Assembly (NCBI GenBank): GCA_008632985.1
Contig: QPGO01000028.1
Coordinates: 1-64,000, forward strand
Length of the DNA stretch: 64,000 nucleotides
Direction of reading: 5' to 3'
From: Psammoneis japonica
Lineage: Eukaryota
The position numbers were made by a program, and so were the translations under genes. The notes below the pieces were generated by a model. The model was not told the origin of the DNA, did not search any database, and was given only the letters and a program-made list of their open reading frames with translations. Shown here one piece after another: positions 6,720-33,379 of this stretch. How positions within the stretch are numbered: position 1 is the stretch's first letter; the number at the start of each line of letters is the position of its first letter.

Positions 6720-9620
6720 ACCACACAAACGGCGACGACAGTGAGCGGGTCATTGTCGATGCAGCGGATTTGTGCGACTCCGATGGCCACGGATTGAGAA
6801 TTTCACGCTGTGGGGTAAAAGCGAAGACACACGGGCAGACGAAAAATGCATGACCTTCGGTCATGCATATGACGTCAGCTGTCCCGCAGCGCGTGCATTT
6901 GGCGCGCGACCATCCAGCGACATGCCATCACAACATGGAACGAACACCACTCGTCGTGACAGCCATTGTCGACTATTGACAATGCGGGTAGCCAGAGAAA
7001 GCTCAAGGAACTCCTTGTTGACAAGTGCAACTGTTCAATGTCTCTTCTCCCAACTTGAGCTTGTTGTGGACTCGATTGGAGACAACATGCTGGAAGAGAG
7101 CATGGGAGCATCTTGTCTCTTTGTCCTCAAGAATGTGGTGCCTAACGGCGTCTACCTCACTCGTTGAATGTAGTGTGTTGAAGTGTGTTGGGCAGCTACA
7201 GGCTCTAGACAAGTCGTCGACCGCTGGCAGCAGATGAAAGGATCATGCCAGTTGTTGCCACGCAGCAAATCACGATGATTGGTTTTTCCTTGTCTGGTTT
7301 CCTTGTCTTTCCTCATCTGAGGAAATTCAGGGTCAAACAAGGAATTCCCTACGATCGAAAACCCCACGCAAGAAGCTTCAGCAGCACTCGTGTGTTTTCT
7401 GTTTTCTCACAAGTGTCATTCTCAACCCTGAACAGTGGCCAGTCACGCATGTTGCGAAACCGGGCTGCCTTGCTGTTGGAGTTGGCATTTCATCCCATGA
7501 CGTCATTTGCTGCACCGCATTTCAAGATGTTTAATTCTGAATGACAACATTGCAATTTTGCCCACGGTCTCCCTGATGGGGGATGCACCCTTCGTCGCGT
7601 CATCTTCCAGAACCACGTCACGTCTCGCCAAAAAGAGTGAGAGATTCCAAAGAGATTCTCCGTCGGGTGACGATTGGTGCATTGCAACTCCTCTTTCTTT
7701 TCACGCACACGACAATGGAAGTTTTAGAAGCCTGGCAGAGAAGAGCAGGTTGAAACATCATTCAGGCAAACAAACATCCCCGATGGCCACAAACAAGAAC
7801 ACACGTTGTCCCAAGAAAACAGACCTTTTGCTTTCCGAAAAAACAAGAAACACACCATGCTGACAGCTGGCACACCAGCTCAAAGTTTTTGCCAGACCTC
7901 AAAAACACTTGCAAGTTTTTCTGAAAAAGGGGTTTCCACCAAGACTGGCCAAAACAAAGTGGAAAGATGGTGACAAGGCTGTTTCAAGCAATGCCATCCT
8001 CAATTTCTTCTGTGAAAACACACAAGGCTCGTGGGCTCTGCCTCTTTTGGCTCTTTCTGTTTGTTGCTGAGAGCAGCCCCCTGGCACAAGGGAAAAAAGT
8101 GGTGCAGCACTCCCATGTTTTTCTCTGTTGCTGAGGAGCTGGTGTTGAAGTTGCTGTTGTTGTTTGGAACAAGCAAATGCAAAGCATGATCTTGCAAAAA
8201 ATCCCTCTGCTTTTTGGTGCGCCGGAAAAACAAAACAGCAGCCAGCCATTTTTGATGTTGAAGAAACACGAAAATGTGGCACACACACACACAGCTTGGC
8301 AAGCAACAAATGGGTTGCCAAAGCACTGCTGTGAAATTGATAAGGCTGGTTTGCTGCTGGAAAAATGGAAATCATGCAAACAAGAAGAGCTGCGCAGGCT
8401 CTCCTGCTCATTTGTGATTTGGGTGGCATCAAAAAGTTGCCCTGCATTTCTCCGATCCTGGGTGATGTGTGATGTTTGCAAACATTTGATCATGGTGTTG
8501 TTCTTGCACACTGTGCCGTGCATGCATTGGGGGACAGTCAATGCATGTGGTGCGCCATTTGCAGATGCTCTGGCGCCCTCTTTTGGAAATGCCAAAGTGG
8601 GTTTGCCCATGCCCTCTGGGCTGGGTGCTTCCCAGACACTGGAGCACAGTGGCGCATGCTGCACAATCTTGTCATGTTGTCCAGTGAACATGCATCATAA
8701 AAAATTGCCTTGATCAGCCTCAACAACAGTGCTGTGGCTGTGCTTTCATCCAGCCAAAGTGGGTGCTGCCCAGCACACACTCAAATGATGGATGCCATCC
8801 ATCTCTGCCCTCAAACTTGAAAGGCAGAAGTGCCAAGCAACACAAGCTGGCCTTCACTGTTGGTGGTGCCGTTGGTTTGCTCCTCACAGCACCACCTTCT
8901 GTTTCTGTTGCTCAGTGTGATTTTGTGATGAAGCCAGCACCAACCATTGTGTTGGGCTCTCTGAAGCTGCTTCAAGAGTCGATGGCAGCCATTGCAGTGC
9001 CCAAAACTCACAACCAAGATGTCCACAAGAGCCCTGGCTGCTGGGTTGTTTCTGGTGCACTGCATGGGAAGCTCAATGAAGCTGGTGGGTTTGGCACAGA
9101 AAGCACTTGCTTGAGAAATGCACAAAAAACATCTCAAAACACACAATGATGGGGACTCACACTGAAGACAAGGCTGCTGCTTGGAAATGTTGTCACGTCT
9201 GGGTTGGTTGATGGCTTGGGAAGGAAGCCACCTGGCAACCAGTTTTGCAGCCACCTCTCAATTGCTTCTTGGAGTGTCATCGGAAGATGGCAAATGCACG
9301 ACTCAACATGTGCAGGCTCTCCAGTGCAATGTGACATGGAATGCAACAGCTCAAACACACAGTTCAAACATGCCCCAATCTTCAAAGTAAAATCCTGATT
9401 CTGGCAACATCTCTTCAGATGCACACAATGTGCTCCACTGCAATCCCAAAAGTGTGGCACAACAAACGCACTGCACAGGTCCATTTTTTGGAACAAAGCA
9501 ACCAAACCATGCATGACAAGCAGCTGGTGGCTTTCAGACTGCACTGCAAACACGAGTCAGTGGTTGTTCCAAATGTGCCACGTGCACCATGGGCATGGAC
9601 AGATCTTAGAAGCACATTCA
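6720..9620. other. TA/CG-depleted hypermutated domain D2
   Basis: About 6 TA counted by eye in 7210-9600. CG persists in 6720-7700 and is scarce in 7850-9600. Many overlapping Cys/His-rich, Tyr-poor ORFs. Confidence 0.85.
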
Positions 9621-9762
9621 AAAACGAGACCGGCCGGCCCCAAAAATTTGCAACTTTGCCTCTACGGGAATCAATGGGATTTTCAGGCGAAGACGAACAG
9701 CGAAAAATAAGCTCAGGGTCTCTCATAACTCTTGAAAGAGAACAGAAAGGTTTTTCTTCACG

Positions 9763-10170
9763 ATGATGGACAGTGACGGCAACATTGAAGCCACCGTCGA
9801 CGTTGGAGGCAGCGATTTGCTATCTTCGATGCGAACAATCTGCTTCAAGTTTCACCACTTTGAGAATCTCCCTCAACAACGTGGAGAGGGAGTCACTTCT
9901 CCAGAATTTGCATTGCGCTCTTCTCAAGGAAGTTGCAGTCCAATTCTTTGTTGCCAACAGTGACAGGGCATTGGAACTAGAGTCTTTCAAGTCGATGGAC
10001 TCGCCAGAGGTACTTCGCGAGCTGACTGAAGCACTCGCGAAACCTAAAGCCTATACCCAGGATGAAGAGAACATTGACAGCATGAGCGTCGGTATCTTGT
10101 GCGAACAGCTCAGTGAGGCGGGGTTCGACGTTGACGGTTCCCGCGAAATGCTTGTTTAGCGTCTCAAGGA
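9763..10170 (+). pseudogene. Internally deleted MATH-BTB-SAP gene remnant
   Basis: The N-terminal MATH start (EATVDVGG...FKFHHFENLPQQRGEGVTSP) is joined at ~9912 to the BTB-end/SAP region (CALLKEVA...GFDVDGSREML). Both parts are homologous to 36385-37593. Confidence 0.8.
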
Positions 10171-10359
10171 GCTTCGTGAAGATATCTCTGAATAGGGCTC
10201 GCTCGCGCCTCGAAGCACTGACTATCCAAGTCTCCGAGAGCATTTCAAGAGGTGAACAGCTCCGTACTATTGGCATTGAGTACGAGCAGTTCTGTATGAG
10301 CCACTCATTTTAGCATACTATGCTGAACGGAATTAGTAACGACATCTAAACCACTTACT

Positions 10360-13161
10360 CTAGCTCTCAATAGCGCCTTCGCGACTAAACACCCGTCCAC
10401 CCTTGAGAAAGCCGGCAAGAGTGTTGGGTGGCGGTTTCAACATATCCGGCATGAACTTGACTTGAAGAGAATTAAACGCAAACAAGGCCTGCCCCACGTT
10501 CTTTTCGCAGACCGGAAGACGCGTTCCATACACACGCATCAGGGTTGCATTCTCAAAGACCCCGTCTTGATTGGCATTTGCGTCCTTTTGCAACAAGAAG
10601 CGACTCACAAACTGCGACTGCTTGTAGGTGACTTGCATGGCGGTACGGTCCTTGCCGCTCTTGCAAAAGACAACGCCCCCGCCACCCAAGCGCTGTGCCA
10701 CAAAGGCAGCCTCGTCGACAATACCGTGAACCATTTTCCCAGCCGACGACATGACCTTGGCATGAAGCGACGTCATGAGGGGATGAATCGTTTGTTGCTG
10801 CTGCTGCTGAGTAGAAGAGATATCCAACAAATTGCCGGACGGCGCCACGGGTGAAATCATGTGCGCATAATTGTTCATTTTGCGACACGCTTCCATATTC
10901 AATTGAATCAAGACATCATTGTCGGGAGTGCCGACATCGTCGTCTTCATCATCAATAATTCCACCACCCGTTGCTTCTTGCCCATCATCTCGTGAATTCA
11001 AATTCTGCTTGGCGTGTGCACCCCACTGACGAATATCGACTCCCACTTGATACAAGAGCGGATACAAGCGCACCGACGCGCCGTTGCGTAGTGGTTCTGG
11101 AATACGCTGCTCCTAATACAAGTGATCCATTCCGATTTCCAATCGATATTGCGTCGAGGAACCCTTGCCGGTATACGAGATTTGTACCCATTGCAAATAG
11201 GGTGAGTGCGGAACCGCTACTCTCGTTCCCGCCGTGCTGGGTTCATTGCCCGACACCAAGACAATTTCCACCATGCTTAGCATGGAAATACCCACACTCG
11301 CGTCTTCAATCATGCCCAATTCCTTCCCGGCCGCACTCAATAGACCCTCAAAGGCTACAAGATAACCGTGTCGTTTCCACAAATCCGGCCATCCCTGTTG
11401 CAACTTTGTCACATCCGACAGACTTGTCAAGTACGAACTCACGGCAATGCCGAGTGCTTGCGAAAAGCAATTGGCACGACGAACCGCACACGTCCAAGTC
11501 AAGGATGCCAAATGTTGCGTAATTTCAAACACTCTCCAACGCTTGGCACTAATATCGGCATGACGTGCCGACACGTGTGTCGTGCCTGGAACCGATGATA
11601 AATACTGTCCAACCGCGGCAATGAGAATCGATTGAGCCTGTTCCAAGGCTCTTGCCAATTCCAATCGTTTCGCTTCAAGTCGTCGTAATCCACCCCGAAT
11701 GGTTCCCACCGCCGTTGTGGCATCTCCTAGATAATTTCCAAAATTCCGTGCATGATCCGCCGGTGCACCGCACGTGACATTGGAAAACATGGCATTCGAA
11801 TGTGGTGCCGCCGATCCTTGTTGCAATACCTGCAGAGATAACGATTGTACGTGTACATTAAAACCAATGCCGGCCAAAGTCTCCTCCATGCGACTCGAAC
11901 TCGGACGAAAGGGTTTGGGTGACATATCTTGCCAACTTTGGACAGACGCGTCGTGCAATTTACCCACCAATCCATTTTGGTACAGATCCAATCGCTTTTG
12001 CAACAATTGCAGGTCTTTGTTTCGTTCTTGTTGAATGTGTGCTTGTAAGTGAGCATGTGTGATAAAATTACCCATGGTTTGCAATTGCGAGATACGCAAT
12101 TGTTTGGCTGCATCAAGGCTTTGTGGTACTGGGGCAGATGGACACGACATGGTATCATAATCCAATACGGGCAAGGTACCCGTCTCTTCCAAGAGTGTAT
12201 CCAATCCCACCAAGGATACCAATCCACCCCGTGCCGAAACAATCGTAGGTGCTGCAGCATTATCATTATCATCCATGCCAATGACCACTTTGAGTTGCAA
12301 ATCACCCATTTTTTGATTGGCTGCGTTATAGACGGGAATGGAAATAACTTGTTGTTGTTGCTGTGAAATACACGACTCGAGACTCAACAAGGCTTGCCAC
12401 GTTTCTTCCAATGGTTGCATGGAACTGTTGTTTGGTCGTCCTGCTCCCGCAGTATTATTGTAGGCAATACGCAATTGAAACCGCAACGTTCCCAATAACA
12501 CGTCATGAGACGAATTACGCAACGATGGCAATACTCCACTCGAGTCCTTTTTCATAATTTTGGCATGAAACGGAACCGATGAGGATTCAACAAATTCTCC
12601 AGATAGAGCTTGTGTATGGACCGCCAGTTTGGTTCCGGGCGGAGCGAGTTCAACTTCAAAAATGGAATCGGGACGTTGCCACGAAAGTGATGTCGTGACA
12701 GTCAAGGTATTGGTTGCTTCTTGTTGTTGCAATACTAGATACCCCATTCCAACATGAACATGTGCATTGCGTCCCTCCATGGAATCGTGACGATTCGCCA
12801 ATAAAGCAAGGGATACACTCTTGGCGTGTTCCAAAGAAATCTGGGAAGCATCTTTTAACAATCCCGCATAGGCGGTTGCCAGAGGCAACACGACGGAACT
12901 TTCAATACACCGTTCCGTGGCCACGAGCCAACTACTCGAAGAAGTAGTAGTAGTAGTATTGACATAACCATACGATGCATCCAGAGGCAAATTGTAAATG
13001 CCATTGTATCCCGATGGATTCGTCAAACTCCATCCCAATCCACACAAGACGGGATGTTTTAAATCCGTCACGATACAACAATGTAATTGTCCACCCACCA
13101 CCACGTGGGATTGTAATTCTACAAAATCAAAACCAAACGTTCCACCCGATTGTGTTAGAGT
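10360..13161 (-). pseudogene. 5'-truncated inverted copy of the inositol polyphosphate 4-phosphatase-like gene
   Basis: Near-identical to 28470-31278 and contains CKSGKDRT. It lacks the first ~210 codons and has an in-frame TAG at 11113-11115 where the other copy has TAT. Confidence 0.85.
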
Positions 13162-13162
13162 A

Positions 13163-13945
13163 TGATCCAAAAAATGGGTTCATCAAGGATGGTGTTCTCA
13201 AAGCACAGGTTCAAATTGACATCCCCACACAGCTCATTTCATGATGTCCCTCCAACACCATCAAAAATGACCTCATTGGTCATTTCAACAACAAGGACTT
13301 GGAGAATTTGTGAGCTTTTATGTGCACCGGTTTCCATGCTTTCTAAAATTGCAGCAGAGTTTTGATCCAGCAAGGACAAAAAGCTTGAAATTGCCAGTTT
13401 TGACCTGACAATTTTTGGATCATTTCTCTGGACTTTGTGTGGTGCAAAGGGCAAAAGTTGAGTGTCAAAACCATCATCGTGGGGCTGCTCAAAGCTGGAG
13501 TTGATCACAGAAGAGAGCCTCACAGAATCTGCCATTCCAGCCAACAAGGCATCCAACGTGTTTTTTCTCTTGCAGGAGGAGTTGTCCTCTCCCCAGGGAG
13601 GTTGCCACATGTGTGCGGGCATTTTTGTTGCCACAACAACCAGCAGGCTGCAAGGAAACCCCATGCACATCATTCCTTGGAGTCACCTCAGTCACCAGAC
13701 AAAATGAGGGCTGCTGCTCTGTGAAGAGAAAGTTTGGTTGGGGGGGGGCTCAATGTGGGCAGCACTCATGAAACATGCTGGTCAACAAGGACCTCAAGGT
13801 GCAGCAGCAGGCACCAACCAGCTCCACAACCATGATGTCACAGCTCTTGTCACAGACACACTGGCTGCAAAGGCCAAACAAAGGATTGTTTGCACCAGTG
13901 CATGTCAGATCTGCCTGGACCGGGTTGGACTTGGGTCAGCAAGTG
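13163..13945 (+). pseudogene. Hypermutated MATH-BTB-SAP relic 1 with 3' flank
   Basis: DPKNGFIKDGVL...PSNTIKNDLIG, KIAAEF...IFGSFL and SLESP...KMRAAAL align to 22228-23435. 13915-13944 matches 23552-23581. Confidence 0.8.
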
Positions 13946-14094
13946 TCGTTGTTTGCAACAACAAGAACAATGAACCAGCGCTGCACATGTGTCCACAGAG
14001 ATGGTGCAGTGGACAGACACATGGCATTGTGCTGCAATGGCATGTGCCTCAAGGCTGCTGCAGGCAGCAAACAGTCAAAAATCTGTCTCTGTGA

Positions 14095-14835
14095 TCATGG
14101 CAACAGGCAGTGATGGCAACATGGAAGTCACAGTCAACATTGGAGGCAGTGATGTGCTGTCTTTGAAGTGAACAATCTGCTTCAAGTTTCACCACTTTGA
14201 AAATCTCCCTCATGCAAGTGGGAAGGGAGTCACTTCTCCAACATTTCTTTGTCATGGATGTTGCTGGGCAGTTGAACTCTTCCCATGTGGAGACCAGCCA
14301 ATTGTCCCGTGTTGTGTGTTGCTGGCTTTGTGGTGTGTTGGCACCCAGGTGAATTGATTGATGCAGAAATCACATTGCAAGCAGGTGGGTGCATGGAAAG
14401 CACTTTTCATTCTTTTGCAGCATCAAGCAAAGTTTGTGGGTTGAGGGATTTACAAAACATGACAATGTGACTCATCCAGACCATGAGTGCCTTGCAAGTG
14501 GTGTGTTTGTCATGAATTGTTTCATTCAGATTTGTCTTCCAAAGCAAAAGATTTGGCATCCTGGTGGCACGTTCAAAGACAACATGGCAGCTCTGCATGG
14601 ATCTGAGAAATTCAAAGACGTCACCTTTTCTGTTGACGGCAAAACAATTCAGGCTCACCAGGCCCTCCTGGCAGCTCGTGCCATGCAGTTCACTGAAATC
14701 TTTGATTGTGGCTTGTTTGCACCTTGAAGCACTGACCGTCCAAGTTCCCAACAGCATTTTGTGTGGTGAGTTGCTCTGCACTGTGATGGTGTTGAGCGCA
14801 AACAGCTCTGTGCGAACCACTCATTTTGGCTTGTT
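14095..14835 (+). pseudogene. Hypermutated MATH-BTB relic 2 with 3' flank
   Basis: 14105-14240 aligns to 9770-9905. CHGCCW...LFPCGD corresponds to CHGYLW...LYPRGD, and KFKDVTFSVDGKTIQAHQALLAARA is the BTB start. 14710-14830 aligns to 10197-10315. Confidence 0.8.
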
Positions 14836-16530
14836 GTGCGGAAGAACAGGATCATCAGTGCCAGTGAAAGACAGCAAAACTGACAGCACACATGTTTTGG
14901 AGTCATGTCTTCCCAACCATTCTGTCATCCAAGCCATTTTTTGAGTCACCTCTGCGCTGTGATGCCATGGTGTGATTTGACACCATGCACTCTCCAGCAA
15001 AGCAGGATCACAAAGAAAGAAAATGACAATGTGTGACTTGACTCTGACCATTCCATGGTTGCCAAGGCTCTAAAAGCCTCACCAAGGCCAAGTGCATGGT
15101 CCAATTGCAGTTGAAGTGCCCTCCTCCATCAAGCATGTGCTCTGCCTGGATGAGCTCAATGGCAGTGCACTTTGGCAAGATGCTGCACACTGCCTCAACC
15201 ATTGGCTGCACCAACTTTGCCATTGCTCTTGAAACACATGCATCCACTGTGTGGCATTCAATGGACCCACACAAAGGACACTTGTCATCTTTGGGCACCT
15301 TGAGAAGTTCCCAAAGTGCCAAGCATTTGTTGATCCATTACACTCCAAGCTGCCAGATGCTGAAGCACTTGACACCACAAACTGCAAAAAGATGTGCATC
15401 CCCCCCCCTCTCCAGGAAAGCCAGCAACCATGAGCTTCCAGTGGCCACACCCACAACAATGTCTCAGCACCCATTGCTTGGTCACTGACACACAGTCATG
15501 TTTGTCAACAACACCTCCATGAAATTGACCTGTGAGCTGTGGTCTGCATGAGGTGAACCCCAGCCAAGCATGATTTCCCAAAGCAAGAGCAAAGAGTCAA
15601 TGACACACCCAAAAAACATTGAGAAACCTGAGTCCAGCTCCTCCAACAATGGATCCACCACCACACATGACCTGACTGCCAAGGAGAAGATTGTTGCTGC
15701 TGTTTTTTCAGAGAGCCCTGACATGTGCTCAATCATGACCAAATTTCAGTGACTGCTGACTGTGTCATCCATGTCATCATGGGGACTGGGGAGAAATTTG
15801 GTGGTCAAACCAGTTGGATGTGCTGACACAATGTGTCACATGCCCCCCAACATTTGTCTTGATGATGTTTGAAGACAATGCGCCAGCACCAAAAATCCAT
15901 GGCCATGTGCCCAGCCAAGATCTCCCCAAGAGAAGATTTGCGGCTGAGATTTCTGGCTTGAAATGGGGAGCAATGTTGCAAGAGATCATGATGGGTTGTC
16001 AGGAGTGCATGCTCCAACACCTTGCTCCAGAGTCTGATGCTTGCAGCACTTGGTGCGCCACAATGCTGCTCATGTTTTTGGAGCAAAGTGTGGCCAGAAG
16101 CTGCCGCGCCTTGTGCTGGAAAATCCTTTGATCTGCTTGTTCACAGCACCCAGCAATTTGACATCACTGGCTTGCATCCTTTTGTTGACTGCCATTCCAA
16201 GCTCTTTGGGCAGCCTGGCTGGTCGAGGAGGGCGAGCCTCTTTCTGCGATGGTTGCCATGCCTCCTCTCACACAAAAAGCTGTGTGCCTCTCATTTTGTG
16301 GTGTGTTGTTCTGTTGCAAAGATTTTGCAGTGACCTTCAGCCCAGTTGTTCATCCAGATCACACTCGAGTCATCTCCAGTGTTTCCCAATGGCTTCCATG
16401 GACAAGGGGGCCGTGACGTTTTCGCACAAATGACACGCGACTGGCCATTTGCGACGCGCTCTCAGCACGCGCCAGCGCATCGCGCACATGCGCGAGTTGA
16501 GTTGACAGCACAGCAGGGCGATCCAGGAAA

Positions 16531-16820
16531 CTTCGAAGACTTCGAAAGATTCCACATTCCATGACATTTCTGTAAATTGTTCTACGTGCAGAGCTCGCAG
16601 GTTGTTGGCACTCAACAAATGAGGGGCAACAGATGAAAGTTCAAACAAATGTGTTGTGTGTTCGAAGCTTTTGAATGTTGTTCGAAGTGTTCGAATTTTT
16701 GTCGAAAACATGTTGCCCTCCAAAGATTTTGATTCATGTCACCTGTTGTTCGAACTTTTCACATTGCCCTTTTGGTCACTTCGAACTTGTTCGAACAAGT
16801 TCGAAGTGTTCGAACAAGTT
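16531..16820. repeat. Left subterminal TTCGAA palindrome array of the Harbinger
   Basis: Many TTCGAA copies, several at 9-10 bp spacing (16780-16815). Confidence 0.85.
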
Positions 16821-17237
16821 GAATGGCAGATCTCGCACTGCCTGCACGCACAACCACTGCACAATGGAATCGCGCTTTTGCTTGCATTGCCCAAAGACAC
16901 AAAGGAAGAAAAAGCATCCACGACACGATGTCCAACCTCCATTTTAATTTTTTCGAACGAGACGACAAGTGATGCCAATTGCTGTCGAGGTGCTGCATCT
17001 TCGGTCGCGTCATAAGTCACCAATCAGATTGCCGAAGGCCATCTGCCTCAAGATGCTGCATGCCGGCAGTGCTGTGCACGTCATCATTTATGTCGCGTTG
17101 CGGCGACGTGGCAAAACGAGAATTCCGGATGTTCGGTGAGTGCAAAAACCCGCACAAAAGCACGGCCACAACAAAATCACGCACAAAAGCAAAGCACCAG
17201 ACTCTTCATTCTTTGTTTGATCACATCGATGAGTGGC

Positions 17238-17448
17238 ATGCGAAAAGACAGTGACGACTGGAATCCAGTCAAAGAGCAGATTGCAAGCGGCCTGTTTGAC
17301 CTTTCGAAACACATCCCACACCGCCAAATTCTCGATTGCAACGTGGAGCAAGGAAATTGGGAAAAAGACAAGCACAAGCTTCCGGCATTTTCAACAAGTT
17401 GCCGAAACCTTGTCAATTCATTACGAACTGAGAGACAGCTTGAATCGG
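17238..17448 (+). CDS. Probable first exon of the Harbinger accessory gene, carrying TA-type mutations
   Basis: MRKDSDDWNPVKEQIASGLFDL...KHKLPAFSTSCRNLVNSLR is followed by a GTAAGT donor at 17449. His/Cys sit where Tyr would be plausible. Confidence 0.45.
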
Positions 17449-18364
17449 GTAAGTGCGTTTTGTCTTCATCCCCGGCTTCTTCGGATTTTCTGGACTCACG
17501 ACCGTTGCGTCTCGCATTGTTGCTCGTGCTCGCCCGCCGCGGATGCCGCACTGTGGAGGTAGACGGAAAGAATACAACCCTGGGTACAACTGCGTAGGGT
17601 CTAGTGCTTCTTCTACAGGGTCACCAGGAAAGCACAGACACCGACTTCCGCTACATCAACCTGCAGCACCCTCCAAGACGCGCAGCTGCGAAGACAACCA
17701 AAAAAGAAAACGATCGCGACAATGGCCTCCCTTGCGTCGCTGACATCTACATCTGTTTTTGCCGTATTTTCCCGTTTCTTTTCGCAGCATTCGGAGCTTT
17801 TATACAAGCAATGTGATGGGCTAGTGGTGCTGGCGTTGAGTTCAATCCGTCGAGGCGGATTTGTCGCTGAAGGTGCAGTGCAGAAATTGTGAGAATGCAG
17901 CATCAACATGACGGATTTTTGTGATGTGCTGTTGTATCTTTGGTGTTGTTTCTCACTTCTTGTCATCATTTTGACGTATGTGCCATAAGGTGTCCACGGG
18001 GCTTGGGTTTTTATGGTGCTGACTTTCTCTTCGGAGCTTATCGTTGAATAATCAAAATTGAGCTGCCACTGGAATTTATGGTAAAGAGTTGGCGGCGGTG
18101 ATGTCTCAACATCCCTTGGGCCGATTTTCGCGATTCTTGTTTCATTGTTGATGGAAATTGTACAAGGAATCCAAGAGGCTTGGTTTTGTTGTGCAAAATT
18201 CCATTCTGTGCAGATGGATTTATTGGATGCCGTGCGCACAGAAATGATGCTTCAATTGGAAGGGGCGCTCCAGCGATGTTGTGGATTGAACAAGGAAGAA
18301 TGAAGCCCTAGACACGCACTGCATGTAACAAGAATGTTAAGTGTGAATGTCAAACATGGCACGG

Positions 18365-18680
18365 GGTTTTTTACGTCAGTTGATCGTGTCGGGTTGCCTT
18401 GATTTGACAGAACATTCCACGGCACCAACCGGTTTGACATGTAGCTGGAAATCGGCTTCCTCCAGTGTTCCAACCAATTTGACCTTGCTTGCATGGGCAA
18501 GCTGTTGTCGCCTGGTTCGGGTGTTCCATACGCCTTTAGACCCATCCACCACGACATCGTTGGGGGTTGTTTGAATGGCCTCTGGTTGGTGAAGTCTTGT
18601 TCACATTGACAAGTCACCCCGCCAAGAAATGACGTGAGTGCTATCAAGGTTGGCTTGTAATACTTTTTAGACGGCATGGT
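18365..18680 (-). mobile_element. Fragment resembling the N-terminus of stramenopile Crypton-type tyrosine-recombinase proteins, nested in the Harbinger
   Basis: WMGLKAYGTPEP...QARSNWLEHWRKPISSYMSNRLVPWNVLSNQGNPTRSTDV resembles, from memory, the AYG..P...RS..L...KKAIS.FM......W.....GNPTRS..VN block of oomycete/diatom CryptonS-like proteins. No catalytic domain is seen. Confidence 0.5.
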
Positions 18681-18867
18681 CTCGGTTGTATTGTTGCATA
18701 AATCTATCAAAAACGCGACGTACCATGCAACAACCCGGTTGTTTCGATACGGGAAAAATTCCCGTGCTTCCTCCACAAGAACACGGAAGATACGGTCGCT
18801 GAAGTGGGGTAACGGTCAGTACAATGTGTAGAATTCAACGGAGAAATACTACGGAATACAACATGGG

Positions 18868-20375
18868 TTGTATTCCCGGGATAATGTACCGGTAGATACT
18901 GACGCCGCGCGGAGAGACGGCGTGGAGGAAATGAAGACACCAGCGAAAACAACGAGGTCAGGAGAGGAGGTCATCACGAATGACGAATCAACGGTGAAGA
19001 ACCCCGTCCACATCATACCTTGGACGGACTCCAATCTTGATAAGAGAATTCTTGTTATCGCCACTCTTCCTTCTGGAGTATTCGGTAACGATGTTGAGGC
19101 ATACATTGACCAGCAACGGACGCTGGTTATCGAGCTCCGAGAACCAAGTTTGTTCAACGATCCGAAGTTGCTCCTTGACGACATTGATCCGAATACCGGG
19201 CTTCCCTTTTGGAACTCAGGTCATGCAGTTATTTCTTCTTTCAAGGAATGTGTCAAGAAAAAGAAAAGGTCGAATGGATCCAATACAGTCCCAAAAAACA
19301 CTGAACGTATCGAGCTTGATGAACCGGTAGAAAATCAGTTCTGCGATTTTGACGTCCCTTACGCCTTTCAATTGAAGACGTATCCAGAGCAACGATTGAT
19401 GGTTGTAATTGCTAGTCTCAGGTAAGTCACAGCTTGTCTACTGCATCAAAATTTTGGCATGGTGCTGAACATTTTTACTTTTTGCTCTATCAATTTTTTT
19501 ACTGGTGCTGCTCGTAGGGTCGTACGAGACAACTACCAACGAACCGCGGTTGTCGAGCGCTTGCACACGCAGCAAGGGACAACGATAGTTCCGTGGGGGT
19601 CTCCCAACATGACACAGAATGTGATAGCTGCCATGATGCAAAATATGGCGATTCAGCAACCCCAACAAGGAATGGGATTTGGAGCATTTGGGGGGCAGCC
19701 GATGCATTATGGAGGTCAGCAGCCTCAGGTAAACCCATGTCAATTCGGTTTTGCTGCTTTTCCTGGTGTCCCTCCAAATCAAGCGGCTTTTGCTGGTGCC
19801 AACGTAGTGCCACCGGCTTATGGTGGTGGTGCCAACGTGGCGCCGCCAAACCCTGCTCAGCCGCCTTTCATGCCCCCCCCCCTGCCCATGTTCAACCACC
19901 GCCCCCGCAGCAGCAGCAGCAGCAGCAGCCAGCAATGCCTCCCAACCAGCAGGCCAATGCAGCCGGCCCCAATCAGAATCCGCCGCCGCCGCCACAGCAG
20001 CAGCCTCCCAATCAGAATCCGCCGCCGCCACAGCAGCAGCCTCCCAATCAGAATCCGCCGCCACCACAGCATGTTGGAGGCAATAATGTTGTGCCGCCGC
20101 AGCAGCAGCAGCAGCCGGCTTTTGGTGGGGGCAACATTTTCATGCCGCCGCCGCAGCCTCCCCAGCAACAGCAGCAGCCTCCGCCTCCTGCTGCTCAAGG
20201 TCGGGCTCAAGCGGCCCGTCCGAATCAGAATGCTGTACCGCCGCAGCAACAGCAGCAGCCCCCGCCTCCTGGTCCTCATTTCGTCGATGGTGCTCAAGGT
20301 CGGGCTCAGCGTCAACGAGTTGATCCTAACGCTACTACTGTCCGCTCTGGCAGGCGTCGCCCGAGAGGGAATTAG
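18868..20375 (+). CDS. Harbinger accessory ORF (3' part) with long Pro/Gln-rich C-terminus
   Basis: ORF 18868-19421, intron 19422-19517 (GTAAGT...CGTAG) joins it in frame to VVRDNYQRT. A frameshift in the C run at ~19873-19882 leads into PPQQQPPNQN repeats that end at 20375. Confidence 0.6.
19968..20070 (+). repeat. Coding tandem repeat, 33-36 bp x3 (CCCAATCAGAATCCGCCGCCGCCACAGCAGCAGCCT)
   Basis: Three consecutive units are visible and encode PNQNPPPPQQQP. Confidence 0.9.
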
Positions 20376-20603
20376 TGGATTGGTGTAGCAGACGGGGGAA
20401 GATATTAGTCACTAGGGAATAATATTGTATAGTGGTAGAAATGCTTGTAGTATTGTCTTATTGACTAAATTAAAAGTAAACTATGGTTCTCGAGAAGTCA
20501 TTAGTGGATTTGTCGCGTGGACAGGAGAAGATACAGTTGCAATACTGAATTTTGGAGCGGTAGAAATGCCACTGTAATAGTCATCTTATAGTTTAAAACA
20601 GAA

Positions 20604-21558
20604 TTAAACTACGGTGCGATATTCCTCCACAGAATATAATGGGTGCTCATTTTCAAGGTCAAGTTGTGTGATGACTGCAACGGCGCTGAAGACATCTTGG
20701 TGCTTTTCGATCCGATGACGAAAAACACGATTCAAAACACCCCACTGCTTAAAGCGTCTGTTCGCGGTTTCGTGTCTCGATCGTACACTGTACTGAATGC
20801 TATTGTCCTCCTGAGGCGTAACAATGTATTTGGGCTCCCCTCTATAGCCCTTATCTGCTTCGACCATCTCACCTTCATCCAGTTCATAAATGAGATTTTG
20901 TTTGAAGATTAAAATGTCGGTGAATCGTCCACAGGGAAATGGGCCGTTTATCCACACAATGTCCCCAGTCATGATATTGATTGCAATCTCATAACGAACG
21001 GCAGGGCCGTTAAACTTGAATGACCACCAGCCGCTCCAAAAGGGTTTCCAATCATAGATACGGTAATCTGTGCAATCAACCGTGACCTTACAGATGTTTC
21101 CGACATCGCCTCGGAAACGATTCGCCCAAAGAATCTGTGTAAGGCAAATCCCACAAGAGGAAGAATGAGAATTTATGAGAAAAAAAAGCGAATCACACAA
21201 GGTCTTTGACGCTTACAACTGAGTATTGCTGTTCGCTAATTGCAACGACAAATAACCAGCACCACTTGCGATACGTCTTTTCATCTACTGCTGCTTCATT
21301 CGTGCTTGCGAGAGTGCAAAGCACGGACTCTGCACAGTAGAGCTTCAAAAACAGAAGGGCCCACAGCAAGTGAACCAAGCGAGCACCAACCGGCATTGAA
21401 TGGAAAGGATCAATCATGATCCAGAGTCGAACGCAATTATACGGACTGGTGCCGAAGTGAGCATGAAATCTTATCTCATCAACAGCGGAACGCACGACAA
21501 GACTTCTTTTCATGAGGCCTTTCCCAATGTCCAAAAACGAGTCTGGTGAGACCGTCAT
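20604..21558 (-). CDS. PIF/Harbinger DDE transposase (DDE_Tnp_4-like), 2 exons, 290 aa
   Basis: Exon 1 is 21558-21217, a phase-0 intron spans 21216-21135 (GTAAGC...ACAG), and exon 2 is 21134-20604. Motifs VTVDCTD, WINGPFPCG..D, EADKGYRG and RSRHETANRRFKQW are present and the frame is intact. Confidence 0.9.
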
Positions 21559-21828
21559 AATGCAACTTTCGTACTGAATCTCTAATACAGTATTTGAGTG
21601 CTGAGAGGAATGGAGCGTTACTTGTCGCTTCGATTGTACGTACCGTATCTCATCATCTCATTGATAGAAGAGAGCACAAAACAACAACGTGAGATATCAT
21701 ACCGTATCGCGCGTGTACTAGTCTACCAGCAGTACAGTACACTACATCATTCGGCTACGGATGTCATCGTGACATCATCATTCGTCTCCCCTGCCGTTAC
21801 TGTACTATTTTTATTTAAGAAAAAAAAC

Positions 21829-22040
21829 TTCGAAAGTGTTCGAAGTACTTCGAAGTGTTCGAAGTATTCGAACACTTCGAACAACTTCGAACACTTCGAA
21901 CTTTCTTTGGGGCAGTATAAAGGGCAATAGAGAAAGAAATTTTACAATGTTCGAAGCTTTTGTCCATCCTACACGAGGTCCACGTAGAGATATATAAATA
22001 GGAATTAGGAATCTCTTAAATATTTTTCGAAACTTCGAAG
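21829..22040. repeat. Right subterminal TTCGAA palindrome array of the Harbinger
   Basis: 8 TTCGAA copies at 9-10 bp period in 21829-21900, plus copies near 21950 and 22026-22039. Confidence 0.9.
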
Positions 22041-22227
22041 TTTCCTGGATCGCCCAGCTCACAATCCAAAGCGTTCTTTTTTTCAAACTGAAACCGCCAT
22101 CAAAACTCAAAACACAACGGCAAAACTGGAAACAAAGCCAACGGCGGACCAAAAAGAAAAGATCAGCAACGGAAAAAGCAAAAGAATAAGAGGCTGCAAA
22201 GCAAAGAAGAGACTTCAATAAGAAAGC

Positions 22228-23435
22228 ATGTTGCATCGCATGGCGCAAGAGATGATTCTCAGCTGGCTGTTGCCTTTCTTGCTCGGGATGGCTCTGACCA
22301 TCAAAGCTCTGACAAGGAACGAAAGCAAGAGGAGAGCCAGCTCTTGTTTTACATTTCGAGACTTTGCAAATCGTCCGCACGATCGTGATGAGATGGAATG
22401 TTCTTTCCCCGTTTTATTCCGTGACAATCTTTGGCGGTTGATTCTCTACCCCGGGGGCAGCAAAACCTCTGATGCAGAGACGGCTCATGTCTCGATTTAT
22501 CTGAAACGCGCGCACGCCGACCATGACCCAGTCAATGTGCAAATCACATTTCGAGTGGGTGGAGGTCGTCTTGTCAGAGAAATCAGTCAGACGATCGGTG
22601 TTGAAACTTGTTGGGGATTCGCGGATTTTGCCACTCGTGCTTACATTCTTGATCCCGCGAACGGATGCATCCAGAACGACGCCCTTGACATAGAGGTTGA
22701 CATTCAGATCAACTCGCCCACACAGCGCATTTGTTGGTTTCCCTCTAACACCATTAAGAAAGACCTCATTGGTCTACGAAATAACGAGGCCTTGGCGGAC
22801 GTAACATTTTTGGTCGGCTTGAAATCATTTCAAGCTCACAAACAAATTCTCGCTGCTCGGGCGCCCGGGCTTTTCGAAATTGCAGCAGAGTTTGAATCCG
22901 GTGCAGACGACAGGCTTAAGATTGTCAATGTCGATCCATCAATCTTTGGGTCTTTCCTGGGCTTCTTATACTCAGACGAGCTCCCAGAGGACATGAACAT
23001 CGAAACGGCCATGGGATTGCTCGAAGTGGCTGACAAGTACAACTGCTCTAACCTGAAGCTCGTCGTCGAGTCAGCGCTCGCAGAATCTCCATTCCAGTTG
23101 ATGAGGTAGTGAACTTTCTTGTTTTTGCAGACAGCAAGAACTGTCCTCTCCTCAAGGAGGTTGCCATGGACCTTTTCGTTGCCAACAACCAGGCCGCAAT
23201 GAAATCCGATGCGTTTCAGTCGTTGGAGTCACCTGAATTGATCCGGGAGTTAATGGCAGCGGTTACAGGCCCACGGACCTATGCCGAAGACGTCCCAGAA
23301 AAGATGAGGGTCGCCACTCTGCGAAGAAAGCTTGACGAGGCGGGGCTCGACGTGGACGGCACTCGTGAAACACTAATTAGGCGTCTCAAGGCACATGCAA
23401 CAACTAGCTCCACCACCGTGGCGCCGCAGCTCTAG
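22228..23435 (+). CDS. MATH-BTB/POZ-SAP domain protein (one frameshift at ~23090)
   Basis: WRLILYPGG (MATH), ADVTFLVG...AHKQILAARAP (BTB) and MRVATLRRKLDEAGLDVDGTRETLIRRL (SAP-like). Confidence 0.85.
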
Positions 23436-23879
23436 CCAGAGATATACTAGTTACTAGGGCTATGATGGGGGCTGTTTGTACCAATATCCGTGCGCTTTTG
23501 TTTTTCGTTGCAAGCTTTTGTATGCTTCAACGCAAGATATGGCGCAGTCATCTGGACCGGGTTGGACTCGGGTCAGTAAGTTCACAACAACGAACCGGCA
23601 CTTGCGTCGGCATTAGTAGAAGACTGCAAATTGATAGTGCATTTATAAGACATCTCTTTCCAATCATTTTCCTCATCTCTCCTCTAGAATTCCTGATACT
23701 GAAGGAATATTCCACGCATACGCACTCTCTAACTCTCTAGCTAGAGTAGACCACAACAGATGAAAATAACAATACGTAAATTCTTTAAAACCTAATATCG
23801 AGAGAGCTGGATGTGCACAATACTAAACTGCAATCCGCAAAAGAAAGCACTACACAAAGACTAGACGACACGACCAACT

Positions 23880-27827: not shown

Positions 27828-30800
27828 ATGTCTTCTGGATACTCGGGATACAGTCCCATTTCGACATTGGAGAAGCAATATGTCGAACCTGCCAATCGTT
27901 TTTTGGTCTTTGTTCAAGCTCATCAATGTTGTGTCAAGGGTGGAATTGAAACCGTATTGAAAAGTAGTAGTCATGGTAGTAGTAATGGGGTGATTAGCAG
28001 TAGTGGTACTGCTTCGGCTGTTGTTCCAAAGACTACAGAACAAAAACAGCAAGCATCCGATAACAACAATGATCCCTTTTCGTTTCTAACAGAAAGCACG
28101 GCTCCTACTACTGTACAACAACCACCACAAAAACAAAAACTCTCGAAAAAATTAATGTCGGGCCTCAAAAAGACGACGAGCAAAATTGAACGCGGCATGC
28201 AAACCATGGCCATCAAGGCGTCTTCGGGTAAAAGTGATTTTTACGTTGTGGGACTATACACGCCTCAGAATGAACTGCTTTGCATGACGGATTCGGTACA
28301 TCCTTCTCTCGATCAACAGAAATTGAATTTTGTCATTCCACTTGTCGTGCCCAATTCAGTACAAGAATTTGTCATTAAACTCTGGATTCGATCCGGTTTG
28401 AAGAGCATTGCCACCAAGAATTACTTGGTGGCATCTTCCGGCATTATGAATCGAACAAAATTGGAACAAACTCTAACACAATCGGGTGGAACGTTTGGTT
28501 TTGATTTTGTACAATTGCAATCCCACGTGGTGGTGGGTGGACAATTACATTGTTGTATCGTGACGGATTTAAAACATCCCGTCTTGTGTGGATTGGGATG
28601 GAGTTTGACGAATCCATCCGGATACAACAACAATGGTATTTACAATTTGCCTCTGGATGCATCGTATGGTTATGTCAATACTACTACTTCGAGTAGTAGT
28701 AGTTGGCTCGTGGCCACGGAACGGTGTATCGAAAGTTCCGTCGTGTTGCCTCTGGCAACCGCCTATGCGGGCTTGTTAAAGATGCTTCCCAGATTTCTTT
28801 GGACCACGCCAAGAGTGTATCCCTTGCTTTATTGGCGAATCGTCACGATTCCATGGAGGGACGCAATGCCCATGTTCATGTTGGAATGGGATATCTAGTA
28901 TTACAACAACAACAAGAAACAACCTTGACCGTCACGACATCACTTTCGTGGCAACGTCCCGATTCCATTTTTGAAGTGGAACTCGCTCCTCCCGGTACCA
29001 AATTAGCGGTCCATACGCAAGCCCTATCTGGAGAATTTGTCGAATCCTCATCGGTTCCGTTTCATGCCAAAATTATGAAAAAGGAGTCGAGTGGAGTATT
29101 GCCATCGTTGCGTAATTCGTCTCACGACGTGTTATTGGGAACGTTGCGATTTCAATTGCGTATTGCCTACAATAATACTGCGGGAGGAGGACGACCAAAC
29201 AACAGTTCCATGCAACAGCCATTGGAAGAAACGTGGCAAGCCTTGTTGAGTCTCGAGTCGTGTATTTCACAACAACAAGTCATTTCCATTCCCGTCTATA
29301 ACGCAGCCAATCAAAAAATGGGTGATTTGCAACTCAAAGTGGTCATTGGCATGGATAATGATACTGCAGCACCACCTACGATTGTTTCGGCACGGGGTGG
29401 ATTGGTATCCTTGGTGGGATTGGATACACTCTTGGAAGATACGGGTACCTTGCCCGTTTTGGATTATGATACCATGCCGTGTCCATCATCTGCCCCAACA
29501 CCACTACAAAGCCTTGATCAAGCTAAACAATTGCGTATTTCCCAGTTGCAAACCATGGGTAATTTTATCACGCATGCTCATTTACAAGCTCATATTCAAC
29601 AAGAACGAAGCAAAGACGTGCAATTGTTGCAAGAGCGATTGGATCTGTACCAAAATGGATTGGTGGGTAAATTGCACGACGTGTCTGTCCAAAGTTGGCA
29701 AGATATGTCACCCAAACCCTTTCGTCCGAGTTCGAGTCGCATGGAGGAGACTTTGGCGGCATTGGTTTTAATGTACACGTACAATCGTTATCTCTGCAAG
29801 TATTGCAACAAGGATCGGCGGCACCACATTCCAATGCCATGTTTTCCAATGTCACGTGCGGTGCACCGGCGGATCATGCACGGAATTTTGGAAATTATCT
29901 AGGCGAGAATGCCACGACAGCGGTGGGAACCATTCGTGGTGGATTACGACGACTCGAAGCGAAACGATTGGAATTGGCTAGAGCCTTGGAACAGGCTCAA
30001 TCGATTCTCATTGCCGCGGTTGGACAGTATTTATCATCGGTTCCAGGCACGACACACGTTTCGGCGCGTCATGCCGACATTTCAGCCAAGCGTTGGAGAG
30101 TGTTTGAAATTACACAACATTTGGCATCCTTGGCTTGGACGTGTGCGGTTCGTCGTGCCAATTGCTTTTCGCAAGCACTCGGCATTGCCGTGAGTTCGTA
30201 CTTGACAAGTCTGTCGGATGTGACCAAGTTGCAACAGGGATGGCCGGATTTGTGGAAACGACACGGGTATCTTGTAGCCTTTGAGGGTCTGCTGAGTGCG
30301 GCCGGGAAGGAATTGGGCATGATTGAAGACGCGAGTGTGGGTATTTCCATGCTGAGCATGGTGGAAATTGTCTTGGTGTCGGGCAATGAACCCAGCACGG
30401 CGGGAACGAGAGTGGCGGTTCCGCATTCACCCTATTTGCAATGGGTGCAGATCTCGTATACCGGCAAGGGTTCCTCGACGCAGTATCGATTGGAAATCGG
30501 AATGGATCACTTGTATTATGAGCAGCGTATTCCAGAGCCACTACGCAACGGCGCGTCGGTGCGCTTGTATCCGCTCTTGTATCAAGTGGGAGTCGATATT
30601 CGTCAGTGGGGTGCACACGCAAAGCAGAATTTGAATTCACGAGACGATGGGCAAGAAGCAACGGGTGGTGGAATCATTGATGATGAAGATGACGATGTCG
30701 GTACTCCCGACAATGATGTCTTGATTCAATTGAATATGGAAGCGTGTCGCAAAATGAACAATTATGCGCACATGATTTCACCCGTGGCGCCGTCCGGCAA

Positions 30801-31278
30801 TTTGTTGGATATCTCTTCTACTCAGCAGCAGCAGCAGCAACAACAAACGATTCATCCCCTCATGACGTCGCTTCATGCCAAGGTCATGTCGTCGGCTGGG
30901 AAAATGGTTCACGGTATCGTCGACGAGGCTGCCTTTGTGGCACAGCGCTTGGGTGGCGGGGGCGTTGTCTTTTGCAAGAGCGGCAAGGACCGTACCGCCA
31001 TGCAAGTCACCTACAAGCAGTCGCAGTTTGTGAGTCGCTTCTTGTTGCAAAAGGACGCAAATGCCAATCAAGACGGGGTCTTTGAGAATGCAACCCTGAT
31101 GCGTGTATATGGAACGCGTCTTCCGGTCTGTGAAAAGAACGTTGGGCAGGCCTTGTTTGCGTTTAATTCTCTTCAAGTCAAGTTCATGCCGGATATGTTG
31201 AAACCGCCACCCAACACTCTTGCCGGCTTTCTCAAGGGTGGACGCGTGTTTAGCCGCGAAGGCGCTATTGAGAGTTAG
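27828..31278 (+). CDS. Inositol polyphosphate 4-phosphatase (INPP4)-like protein
   Basis: CKSGKDRT Cx5R catalytic motif and FEGLLSAAGKELGMIED. Two 1-nt deletions (~28778, ~29757) relative to the inverted copy break the frame. Confidence 0.85.
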
Positions 31279-31459
31279 AGTAAGTGGTTTAGATGTCGTT
31301 ACTAATTCCGTTCAGCATACTATGCTAAAATGACTGGCTCATACAGAACTGCTCGCACTCAATACCAACATAGTATAGAGCTGTTCACCACTTGATATGC
31401 TGTCGGAGACTTGGATAGTCAGTGCTTCGAGGCGCGAGCGAGCCCTATCCAGAGATATC

Positions 31460-31605
31460 TTCACGAAGCTCCTTGAGACGCTGATCAAGCGTTTCGCGGG
31501 AACCGTCAACGTCGAACCCCGCCTCATTCAATGAGCTGTTCGCACAAAATACCGACGCTCATGCTGTCAATATTCTCTCCATCCTGGTTATAGGCTTTTG
31601 GTTTC
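31460..31605 (-). pseudogene. SAP-domain 3' fragment of a MATH-BTB-SAP gene
   Basis: Reverse-complement copy of ~10039-10185. Confidence 0.7.
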
Positions 31606-31966
31606 TAGGTATTAGGTTTAATGCCTAATTTGCGTATTATTGTTTTCATCTGTTGTCGTCTACTAGCTAGAGAGTGCGAATGCATGGAATATTCCTACTG
31701 TGTGGCTTGGGTATAAATAAAAGTACTACTGAGTATCAATTTTTGCAGTCTTTTCTACTAATGCCGACACAAGTGGCGGTTCGTTGTTATAAACTTACTG
31801 ACCCGAGTCCAACCCGGTCCAGATAGCTGTAAAATATCTTGCATTGAAGCATGCAAAAACTTGCAACGAAAAACAAAAGCGCACGGATGTTGGTACAAAC
31901 AGTCCCCGTCATAGCCCCAGCAGCCAGCATATCTCTAGCTATAGCTGCGGCATCACGGTAATGGAG

Positions 31967-33179: not shown

Positions 33180-33371
33180 GCTTTTGTATCGAAGTCTCTC
33201 TTCTTTGCTTTGTCGTTGTCGTTTGTGACGATTGTGCGGTTTTGGTGGTAACCATACGCTTCACCCGCTTCGCCGTTGGTTTTTTTTGATCCGGCTTTTT
33301 GAGTTTGAAAAAAAAACGTTGGATTTTGAGCTGCTGTGCTGTCGGCTCAACTTGCCTTTTCGTTCGTTAGC

Positions 33372-33379
33372 TGACGTCA
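33372..33379. promoter_or_regulatory. TGACGTCA palindrome (CRE/bZIP-type) upstream of the Cys-rich membrane protein gene
   Basis: The same 10-mer CTGACGTCAC occurs upstream of the paralog (43323-43332, reverse strand). Confidence 0.3.

Follow-up and report, generated by a model that had tools for sequence, protein, structure and literature searches.

Can the dinucleotide TA be erased from DNA independently of CG, and can such erasure reach a transposon that has inserted nearby? The question is raised by a 64,000-nt stretch of the Psammoneis japonica genome (assembly GCA_008632985.1, contig QPGO01000028.1, positions 1 to 64,000; referred to below as the window), in which a PIF/Harbinger element lies beside one of five domains depleted in TA. 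A first-pass annotation had proposed that TA loss outruns CG loss here and has entered the left ~0.9 kb of the element. We find that TA is nearly absent from this left part while CG stands at its normal frequency, and that TA depletion extends beyond CG depletion at most domain edges. We favour erasure in situ, on the domain-facing left part of the element after its insertion, a reading that we consider about evenly balanced between right and wrong.

TA and CG depletion across the window

Bins of 500 bp split the window into two classes, i.e. normal sequence and domains depleted in TA and CG. The observed/expected ratio (o/e) is 0.57 for TA and 1.01 for CG in normal sequence, against 0.03 and 0.14 in the pooled domain cores (9.5 kb), where CA and TG rise to 1.91 and 1.94. 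The base composition of the cores is the same as that of normal sequence, and AA is not reduced in them (o/e 1.28). Depleted segments were defined by a two-state hidden Markov model (HMM), fitted separately to TA and CG (Table 1). The five TA-depleted domains cover about 23% of the window, and throughout the 64 kb, 830-bp intervals with 6 or fewer TA are confined to those domain regions, edges included. The depletion of TA and CG is real and not a chance fluctuation. TGA is the sole stop codon left in the depleted domains, and all six frames look open; ten open reading frames (ORFs) taken from them have no Pfam match.

A total of 42 TA survive in the depleted segments. Among these, A comes next in 24 (57%, compared with 23% in normal DNA) and T precedes in 16 of 42 (compared with 20%). 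Either TAA/TTA is a poor substrate, or the surviving TA have newly arisen from A/T runs.

TA depletion exceeds CG depletion at 6 of the 9 visible edges, by 613, 504, 425, 1010, 302, and 240 bp, and the two end together at the other 3; at none of the 9 does CG depletion reach more than 70 bp beyond TA depletion. Fringes poor in TA and rich in CG had been reported at four further places, and 3 of these are roughly right: 940–1120 (0 TA and 16 CG), 43340–43900 (3 and 20), and 51640–51970 (0 and 14). The fourth, 6720–7700, does so only in part, with 11 TA and an HMM start at 7207. Among all fringes, only that of the element has a fully normal CG o/e (1.05), while the others are intermediate (0.47–0.83). 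An assembly gap of 12 N is located at 1026–1037, inside the TA-only fringe of domain 1.

Direction of change

The direction of the change is seen by comparing domain 3, which adjoins the element, with an intact paralog. Under transition-tolerant scoring, domain 3 (13147–16480) is collinear with an intact MATH-BTB unit on the reverse complement of 28461–33400, with a score of 548 compared with 149–213 for 9 controls (shuffles or unrelated sequences). A self-comparison recoded into purines and pyrimidines recovers the same relations between domains and paralogs at 82–95%, and for domains 1, 4, and 5 no intact paralog is detectable within the window. At the 164 CG of the intact copy, domain 3 has CA/TG in 112 cases and CG in 6; at the 107 TA, it has CA/TG in 77 cases and TA in none. 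By comparison, two normal paralog pairs at 80% identity keep 51–65% of CG and 53–58% of TA. A second paralog pair with normal TA and CG, the inverted copies 34240–36014 and 41002–42779 (78% identical), served as a control. As read from these alignments, TA loss is a directional mutational process, i.e. TA→CA/TG.

Specifically, A→G changes in domain 3 have a frequency of 0.42 after a 5′ T, compared with 0.27 after A, 0.23 after C, and 0.26 after G. The A→G excess is thus TA-specific and not of the WA type, as it is highest after 5′ T only. Collateral of repair patches of the polymerase-eta type (WA→WG) was considered and rejected, given that A→G after A resembles that after C or G and that AA is not depleted in the cores. 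At 64 of 441 CA/TG sites, domain 3 and the intact paralog carry opposite members, CA in one and TG in the other, which fits rapid re-conversion of new TA or CG, though a one-step event is conceivable.

Independent contigs of run X1 were compared with the window; statements on their differences and joints refer to 40 of 833 differences and 15 of 29 joints. Contigs of the flanks and domains have depths of about 57–62 and about 1% differences from the window, and those covering the domains are ~99% identical to it (8 differences in 864 nt, 7 in 1088, and 9 in 835). In domain 2, 10 of ~13 events are exchanges between TA/CG and CA/TG, in both directions, and CA→TG double substitutions are found at 9469–9470 and ~9579–9580. 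As the differences in this domain are mostly of this kind, the process would be recent or ongoing, in agreement with the first-pass annotation, which had called for a check of polymorphism between haplotypes.

The same annotation had described TA loss as faster or wider than CG decay. Wider it is, at the edges given above, but the contigs do not show it to be faster: TA and CG of the core differ at similar proportions (2 of 11 window TA and 3–4 of 19 window CG in the core of domain 2, a small sample). Similar rates in the core cannot produce a fringe that has lost ~87% of its TA and no CG, as that of the element has, so the fringe would reflect a wider TA footprint and not a higher rate.

We also considered whether the pattern could be an artefact of base calling or assembly at modified bases, with 5-methylcytosine read as T and modified A read as G. 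Both changes are transitions of the kind that such errors would give, but the independent contigs of run X1 agree with the window over the domains at the identity given above, with differences that run both ways, and 406 transversions plus many gaps separate domain 3 from its paralog. We regard an artefact as very improbable.

Probable TA erasure inside the left part of the element

In agreement with the ~3 TA and abundant CG first reported for 16590–17420, this interval has 3 TA (16945, 17013, and 17089) and 47 CG (o/e 0.05 and 1.04). The return to normal TA from ~17420 and the TA-rich right end also stand: the 4638 bp from 17422 to the right terminal inverted repeat (TIR) contain 190 TA (o/e 0.61, similar to the normal 0.57 of the window), and 21590–22030 has 36 TA (o/e 0.90). 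Over 16512–17421 as a whole, o/e is 0.08 for TA, 1.05 for CG, 1.45 for TG, and 1.47 for CA, the corresponding values for the remainder of the element being 0.61, 0.96, 1.19, and 1.21; the drop in TA (0.53) matches the rise in TG plus CA (0.52). The left end of the element falls within a single unbroken low-TA run, which extends from 13085 to 17572 (830-bp intervals, 6 or fewer TA).

The deficit is also found at the level of codons. Exon 1 of ORF1, the gene at the left of the element, has 1 TA where 7.3–7.8 are expected (P = 0.0013 and 0.00095) and 11 CG where 10.6–11.6 are expected, the expectations being based on its own amino-acid sequence and on the codon usage of the other exons of the element or of host genes. 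With CG as expected in exon 1 and normal throughout the TA-erased part, the claim that TA erasure is separable from CG decay is borne out.

Homologs of exon 1 make it possible to ask which tyrosines, if any, have been lost. All 15 aligned homologs have 1–4 Tyr in this region (mean 2.5), while the copy in the window has none. His49 (CAC, 17373–17375, plus strand) is Tyr in 12 of 14 homologs, and CAC is the product expected of TAC→CAC. Cys37 (TGC, 17337–17339, plus strand) falls in an aromatic column (7 F, 5 Y, 2 W, and 1 H) and is compatible with TAC→TGC. The first-pass annotation had proposed that restoring H/C to Y yields a more protein-like exon, which is clear for His49 and plausible for Cys37, i.e. 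for 1–2 of the 5 sites. It fails for the other 3: His31 is native, with His conserved in 12 of 15 homologs, the column of His28 is variable with Tyr in 0 of 15, and that of Cys58 is V/L/I/F with Tyr in 1 of 14.

Relatives of the element in the X1 contigs bear on the same point. The ends of the element (16512 to ~16824 and ~21700 to 22059) have depths of about 650 or more, and one contig departs from the window sequence at 16824 into TA-rich DNA, which indicates that only the ends are common to high-copy relatives. At position 16712, all 6 contigs of related copies have TA where the window has TG, and among the 40 differences covered this is the sole fully supported one in the shared left part.

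The balance between TG/CA and TA, the codon deficit of exon 1, the residues His49 and Cys37, and the TA→TG change at 16712 together support the view that low TA in the left part of the element is a derived state, at least in part and at any rate for 16825–17421. A comparison of the left and right ends beyond the TIRs was not counted: the alignment is weak (score 108), and although 10 of 15 right-end TA face CA/TG, its scoring favours transitions.

An alternative is that the left 0.9 kb of this family, made up of the arrays, the 5′ untranslated region (UTR), and exon 1, has always been TA-poor, and that nothing happened after insertion. Gene 5′ regions of low TA and normal CG do exist far from the domains, as at 32700–33333 (TA o/e 0.17), and the relatives share 16512–16824 with few differences; the depletion also stops near the exon 1 donor. 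The natively TA-poor regions 22063–22640 and 32700–33333 (TA o/e 0.15–0.17), however, have no TG/CA excess (about 1.2), whereas in the element this excess equals the TA deficit. Nor would native composition account for a tyrosine conserved in most homologs that has become His through the exact TA→CA change, for the lack of any Tyr, for a synonymous-level TA deficit (P about 0.001) relative to the element's other exons, or for the absence of comparable low-TA intervals outside the domain regions. We consider this explanation rather improbable. The region right of the element, 22063–22640 (TA o/e 0.15), was also tried as a relic fringe and rejected, as the equivalent region of a distant paralog (32700–33333) is TA-poor as well.

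Erasure before or after insertion

The unique contigs of the element have depths of 36.6 (16795–17579), 28.3, and 29.8, with 0 differences from the window, and the insertion looks hemizygous by contig depth. Since 16795–17579 has half depth like the rest of the element, this TA-poor sequence is part of the insertion and not of the resident domain. The erased tract is continuous with the TA-free zone of domain 3, faces the domain, and is fringe-like in size, while the opposite end of the element is equally repetitive but TA-rich. The first-pass annotation held that the erasure post-dates the insertion; contiguity and polarity favour this without proving it.

A similar composition could, on the other hand, have been acquired before transposition, in an ancestor copy located near or inside another depleted domain, in which case the present adjacency would be a coincidence or an insertion preference. 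For a young insertion, as hemizygosity implies, the loss of about 87% of TA is large, and the element retains, intact, the TIR and TTCGAA arrays that mobility requires. A duplicate that lies beside domains without TA erosion (B, below) also favours this possibility. What counts against it is that the erased end faces the domain and continues its TA-free zone: by a rough estimate from the 9 edges and the 23% of the window in domains, an element would land correctly oriented and no more than ~100 bp from the edge of a CG core with a chance of the order of 1–2%. Overall, we find erasure before transposition unlikely, if appreciable.

Several observations weigh against erasure in situ. Hemizygosity is read from contig depth alone, and no contig joining the empty site is found among the joints compared. 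The first ~310 bp (TIR and TTCGAA arrays) appear almost the same in high-copy relatives, and low TA may be native to this stretch; a TA-poor left end in other copies is what the first-pass annotation had named as contrary to its view, and this is perhaps so for these ~310 bp. Two TA persist within 75 bp of the TIR (16573 and 16583), nearest the domain, and the depletion stops about 27 bp before the exon 1 donor, where it would also be expected to stop if the exon/UTR composition were native. A clear replacement is found for only one conserved Tyr, and 3 of the 5 proposed restoration sites are not Tyr in homologs. A second full copy of this Harbinger family was not found in searches of metagenome contigs, viral contigs, or word-indexed proteins. 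Specifically, an exact TIR scan of metagenome contigs gave 0 matches, pattern searches for relatives of ORF1 exon 1 gave 162 matches in metagenome contigs and 23 in viral contigs, none confirmed, and a word-indexed protein search with exon 1 found no relatives. We also know of no chemistry for a TpA-specific transition.

A further point concerns duplicate B, which domains 2 and 3 flank on either side and which has diverged by 3.7% from its counterpart B′ (116 mismatches in 3106 aligned positions); taken as the inverted pair 10030–13170 and 28461–31613, the two copies are 95–96% identical. This divergence exceeds the ~1% between contigs and window, yet B shows no net TA loss. Changes between TA and CA/TG are symmetric in the pair (9 vs 11), and CG loss leans to B without significance (12 vs 5). 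The end 500 bp of B are no poorer in TA than those of B′ (24 vs 27 in the first and 26 vs 25 in the last), and its borders are razor-sharp: TA occurs at 13161 and then not before 13319. If a hemizygous insertion is eroded over 0.9 kb, the responsible process should have marked B as well, unless B is protected. With B untouched, either TA erasure respects a boundary, most simply one of chromatin state, or the end of the element was erased elsewhere. The claim that erasure spreads in cis thus keeps its support from contiguity and orientation, but a simple effect of distance does not agree with the un-eroded B. In itself, B looks like a natural control or a boundary element. Next to the insertion, the host sequence 16412–16511 resembles a CpG island, and it is here that the MATH-BTB gene at 22222 may once have had its promoter-side boundary.

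The untouched B would also be expected if erasure were directed at the element itself, with silencing nucleated on the ORF1 promoter or on its multi-copy end instead of spreading from the domain, and with the domains being older silenced duplicates. The left end is indeed multi-copy, and the domain cores are degenerate duplicates. Yet the right end is equally multi-copy and remains TA-rich, and the erased tract is exactly contiguous with domain 3, which leaves this explanation a small chance in our view.

A possible mechanism and comparison with known systems

Two context-specific transition processes act in silent kilobase-scale domains and turn CpG and TpA, both self-complementary pyrimidine–purine steps, into TpG/CpA, a direction of change that the paralogs display. 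CpG loss would most simply be due to deamination of 5-methylcytosine in a methylated core, and TpA loss to a second, separate process tied to silent chromatin, which reaches 0.2–1 kb past the CpG-depleted core at most edges. Under the favoured reading of erasure in situ, the PIF/Harbinger element would have landed on one haplotype, with domain 3 on one side and the promoter of a MATH-BTB gene on the other, and the TpA process would then have hit the domain-facing ~0.9 kb, i.e. the subterminal region, the region upstream of ORF1, and exon 1, where, judging from contiguity, polarity, and composition, ~87% of TA would have become CA/TG and every CG would have been kept. As the adjacent intact duplicate B is untouched, the process probably follows chromatin state and not distance.

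The chemistry may be an enzyme-driven change at the A or T of TpA. The leading candidate, which is speculation, is adenine deamination with a 5′-T preference (A→I, read as G); equally speculative alternatives are that thymine is oxidised, or that adenine is modified and then processed mutagenically. Taken together, we tentatively propose, at somewhat less than an even chance, a chromatin-targeted TpA→TpG/CpA mutator that is independent of CpG methylation decay, is still active, and is fast enough to have removed ~87% of the TA in those 0.9 kb of a hemizygous insertion that face the domain.

Methylation-driven CpG decay resembles part of this pattern, since CG→TG/CA is confined to silent domains with a reciprocal TG/CA gain (112 of 164 CG; core CG o/e 0.14, TG/CA 1.9). 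It cannot, however, touch TpA, and here TA is erased more fully than CG (0.03 vs 0.14), also where CG is intact. CG methylation of transposons has been described in diatoms, which also encode DNMT4 enzymes related to RID and without a known function (PMC9998398).

Repeat-induced point mutation (RIP) in fungi, which involves RID/DNMT4-type enzymes, likewise produces context-specific transitions in duplicated silent DNA. RIP makes CpA→TpA and so raises TA, while the change here is the opposite, A:T→G:C in TpA context. In addition, RIP mutates both of two long near-identical duplicates, whereas B and B′ (3.1 kb, 96.3% identical) are both normal in TA and CG. In place of C→T at CpA and an excess of TpA, the cores have a TA o/e of 0.03, and domain 3 keeps 0 of 107 TA.

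Adenosine deaminases with a 5′-U/T preference are known from ADAR hyper-editing of RNA and from TadA-type enzymes, and act on RNA or tRNA. The likeness lies in A→G after T, which gives TA→TG and, on the other strand, TA→CA, as in the measured 0.42 after T compared with 0.23–0.27 after other bases; to our knowledge, no adenosine deaminase is active on chromosomal DNA domains. Very-short-patch repair in Escherichia coli, which is tied to CCWGG methylation and depletes CTAG, is also a repair bias that turns TA-containing words into CA/TG words. That system is bacterial and affects one tetranucleotide, whereas here all TA contexts are lost and the survivors are enriched in TAA/TTA. A full-text literature search, incomplete in coverage, returned no account of joint TA and CG erasure or of TpA→TpG/CpA hypermutation of DNA domains; its matches were to fungal RIP, viral dinucleotide bias, and methylation in general.

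Implications

Context-specific hypermutation of silenced DNA is already known for cytosine, as in CpG decay and RIP. Domain-restricted TpA erasure would be a new mutational mechanism on A:T pairs and would imply an enzyme or DNA modification not known so far. It could form a second, A:T-directed arm of genome defence, one that would remove Tyr codons, the stops TAA and TAG, and TATA-like signals, and would deprive cut-and-paste transposons of target sites that contain TA. Several transposon superfamilies use such TA-containing sites, which domains of this kind lack.

The TA-only fringes and a partly erased young transposon would also provide a natural time series, from which the site of the process relative to CpG methylation, its speed, and its barriers could be read; as duplicate B is untouched, something would have to stop it. 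In practice, such domains mislead gene finders, since every frame looks open without TAA/TAG, and they hide paralogs from BLAST: domain 3 could be aligned end to end by transition-tolerant scoring only.

Structure of the element and neighbouring features

The identification as a Harbinger element is upheld by its TIRs and spliced transposase (Table 1). The transposase match to PF13359 (DDE_Tnp_4) at 20604–21212 on the minus strand has an E-value of 3e-6 and 27.4 bits, above the cutoff of 24.8. The 3-bp CAC repeat fits PIF/Harbinger in length and not in sequence, the usual duplication being TWA, and a 3-bp match is expected by chance 1 time in 64. PIF/Harbinger elements with Tourist-like non-autonomous relatives resemble it in the DDE_Tnp_4 transposase and the TIRs, in the length of the flanking repeat (3 bp), in the presence of a second ORF, and in high-copy relatives with which it has only the ends in common. 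The element differs from these in its CAC repeat and in an ORF1 without a recognisable Myb-like domain, the second ORF of such elements encoding a Myb/SANT-like DNA-binding protein.

Table 1. Coordinates of depleted segments, parts of the Harbinger element, and adjacent features in the window
Feature	Position	Strand	Remarks
TA-depleted segments (HMM)	1–1201, 7207–9977, 13162–17421, 43489–45211, 47157–51976		
CG-depleted segments (HMM)	1–588, 7711–9552, 13148–16411, 43791–45200, 47087–51736		
Core of domain 3	13148–16411		TA and CG nearly absent; degenerate paralog of MATH-BTB gene unit
Duplicate B	about 10052–13193		Between domains 2 and 3; normal in TA and CG; 96.3% identical to reverse complement of 28457–31592 (B′)
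Host-side fringe left of insertion	16412–16511		0 TA and 15 CG in 100 bp
PIF/Harbinger element	16512–22059		TIRs, CAC duplication, spliced DDE_Tnp_4 transposase
CAC direct repeat (putative target-site duplication)	16509–16511 and 22060–22062		Flanks the TIRs
Left TIR	16512–16538	+	27 nt, 96% complementary to 22033–22059
Right TIR	22033–22059	-	27 nt
TA-erased, CG-normal left part of element	16512–17421		5 TA and 51 CG in 910 bp; HMM boundary at 17421
Left subterminal TTCGAA arrays	16532–16814		10 copies; common to high-copy relatives up to ~16824
Right subterminal TTCGAA arrays	21829–21955		TA-rich setting
ORF1 exon 1	17229–17448	+	73 codons, then GTAAGT donor; conserved N-terminal domain
High-copy repeat in ORF1 first intron	17580–18865		Normal TA; depth 1800–2900 compared with ~60 for single copy
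ORF1 exons 2 and 3	18928–20388	+	Intron 19422–19517; TA normal, Tyr present, Q/P-rich tail
Transposase gene	20604–21657	-	DDE_Tnp_4; two exons; 82-nt GT..AG intron 21135–21216

Exon 1 of ORF1 has 19 homologs in a representative library of 1.84 billion proteins (best E-value 2.9e-18). One of these, P0003, runs on into a region homologous to 18928–19419 (BLASTP E-value 5e-12), and as it spans both, exon 1 and the downstream ORF are one gene. No Pfam domain was found in ORF1, including no recognisable Myb-like domain; this second ORF of the element is conserved and multi-exon. Its N-terminal domain, with the consensus IPHRxILDYN ... NW ... Y.Y.AF..SVRxLV, defines a conserved family without a Pfam model (P0002–P0013, P0015, P0017, and P0018), most database members of which look like gene calls that read through the next intron. 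The alignment of the family (A1) leaves out P0014, P0016, P0019, and P0020, which match in 4–5 short stretches each (E-values 1e-5 to 7e-4) and are probable low-complexity matches. A long low-complexity sequence rich in Q, P, and A makes up the third exon (19800–20390), where several frames are open on either strand; part of this exon was passed over as repeat in the contig comparison.

Contigs of a second run (X2) skip 19420–19515, i.e. the ORF1 intron, and the transposase intron 21135–21216, which makes it likely that the two genes of the transposon are transcribed and spliced. Run X2 was guessed to be DNA and behaves like cDNA, as its contigs skip these two canonical GT..AG introns. Its contigs leave the depleted cores and 16206–17339 uncovered, which is not evidence of silence.

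Unique contigs end at 17579 and resume at 18866, around the repeat in the first intron of ORF1. This repeat is bounded by the 9-bp direct repeat GAATACAAC (17570–17578 and 18854–18862), and no Pfam match was obtained for the two ORFs (212 and 187 aa) on its minus strand.

The MATH-BTB genes of the window form a cluster. A word-indexed protein search with one intact MATH-BTB ORF gave 1452 candidates, none at E ≤ 0.001. The intact copies, with Pfam MATH_2 and BTB matches, are located at 22222–23800, 31604–33260, and 36388–37611, and at least two relics erased in TA and CG are found at 8906–10033 and 13163–14365. As a lead towards a diatom host, a neighbouring gene has a DUF6824 domain, and its nearest Atlas clusters are Bacillariophyta.

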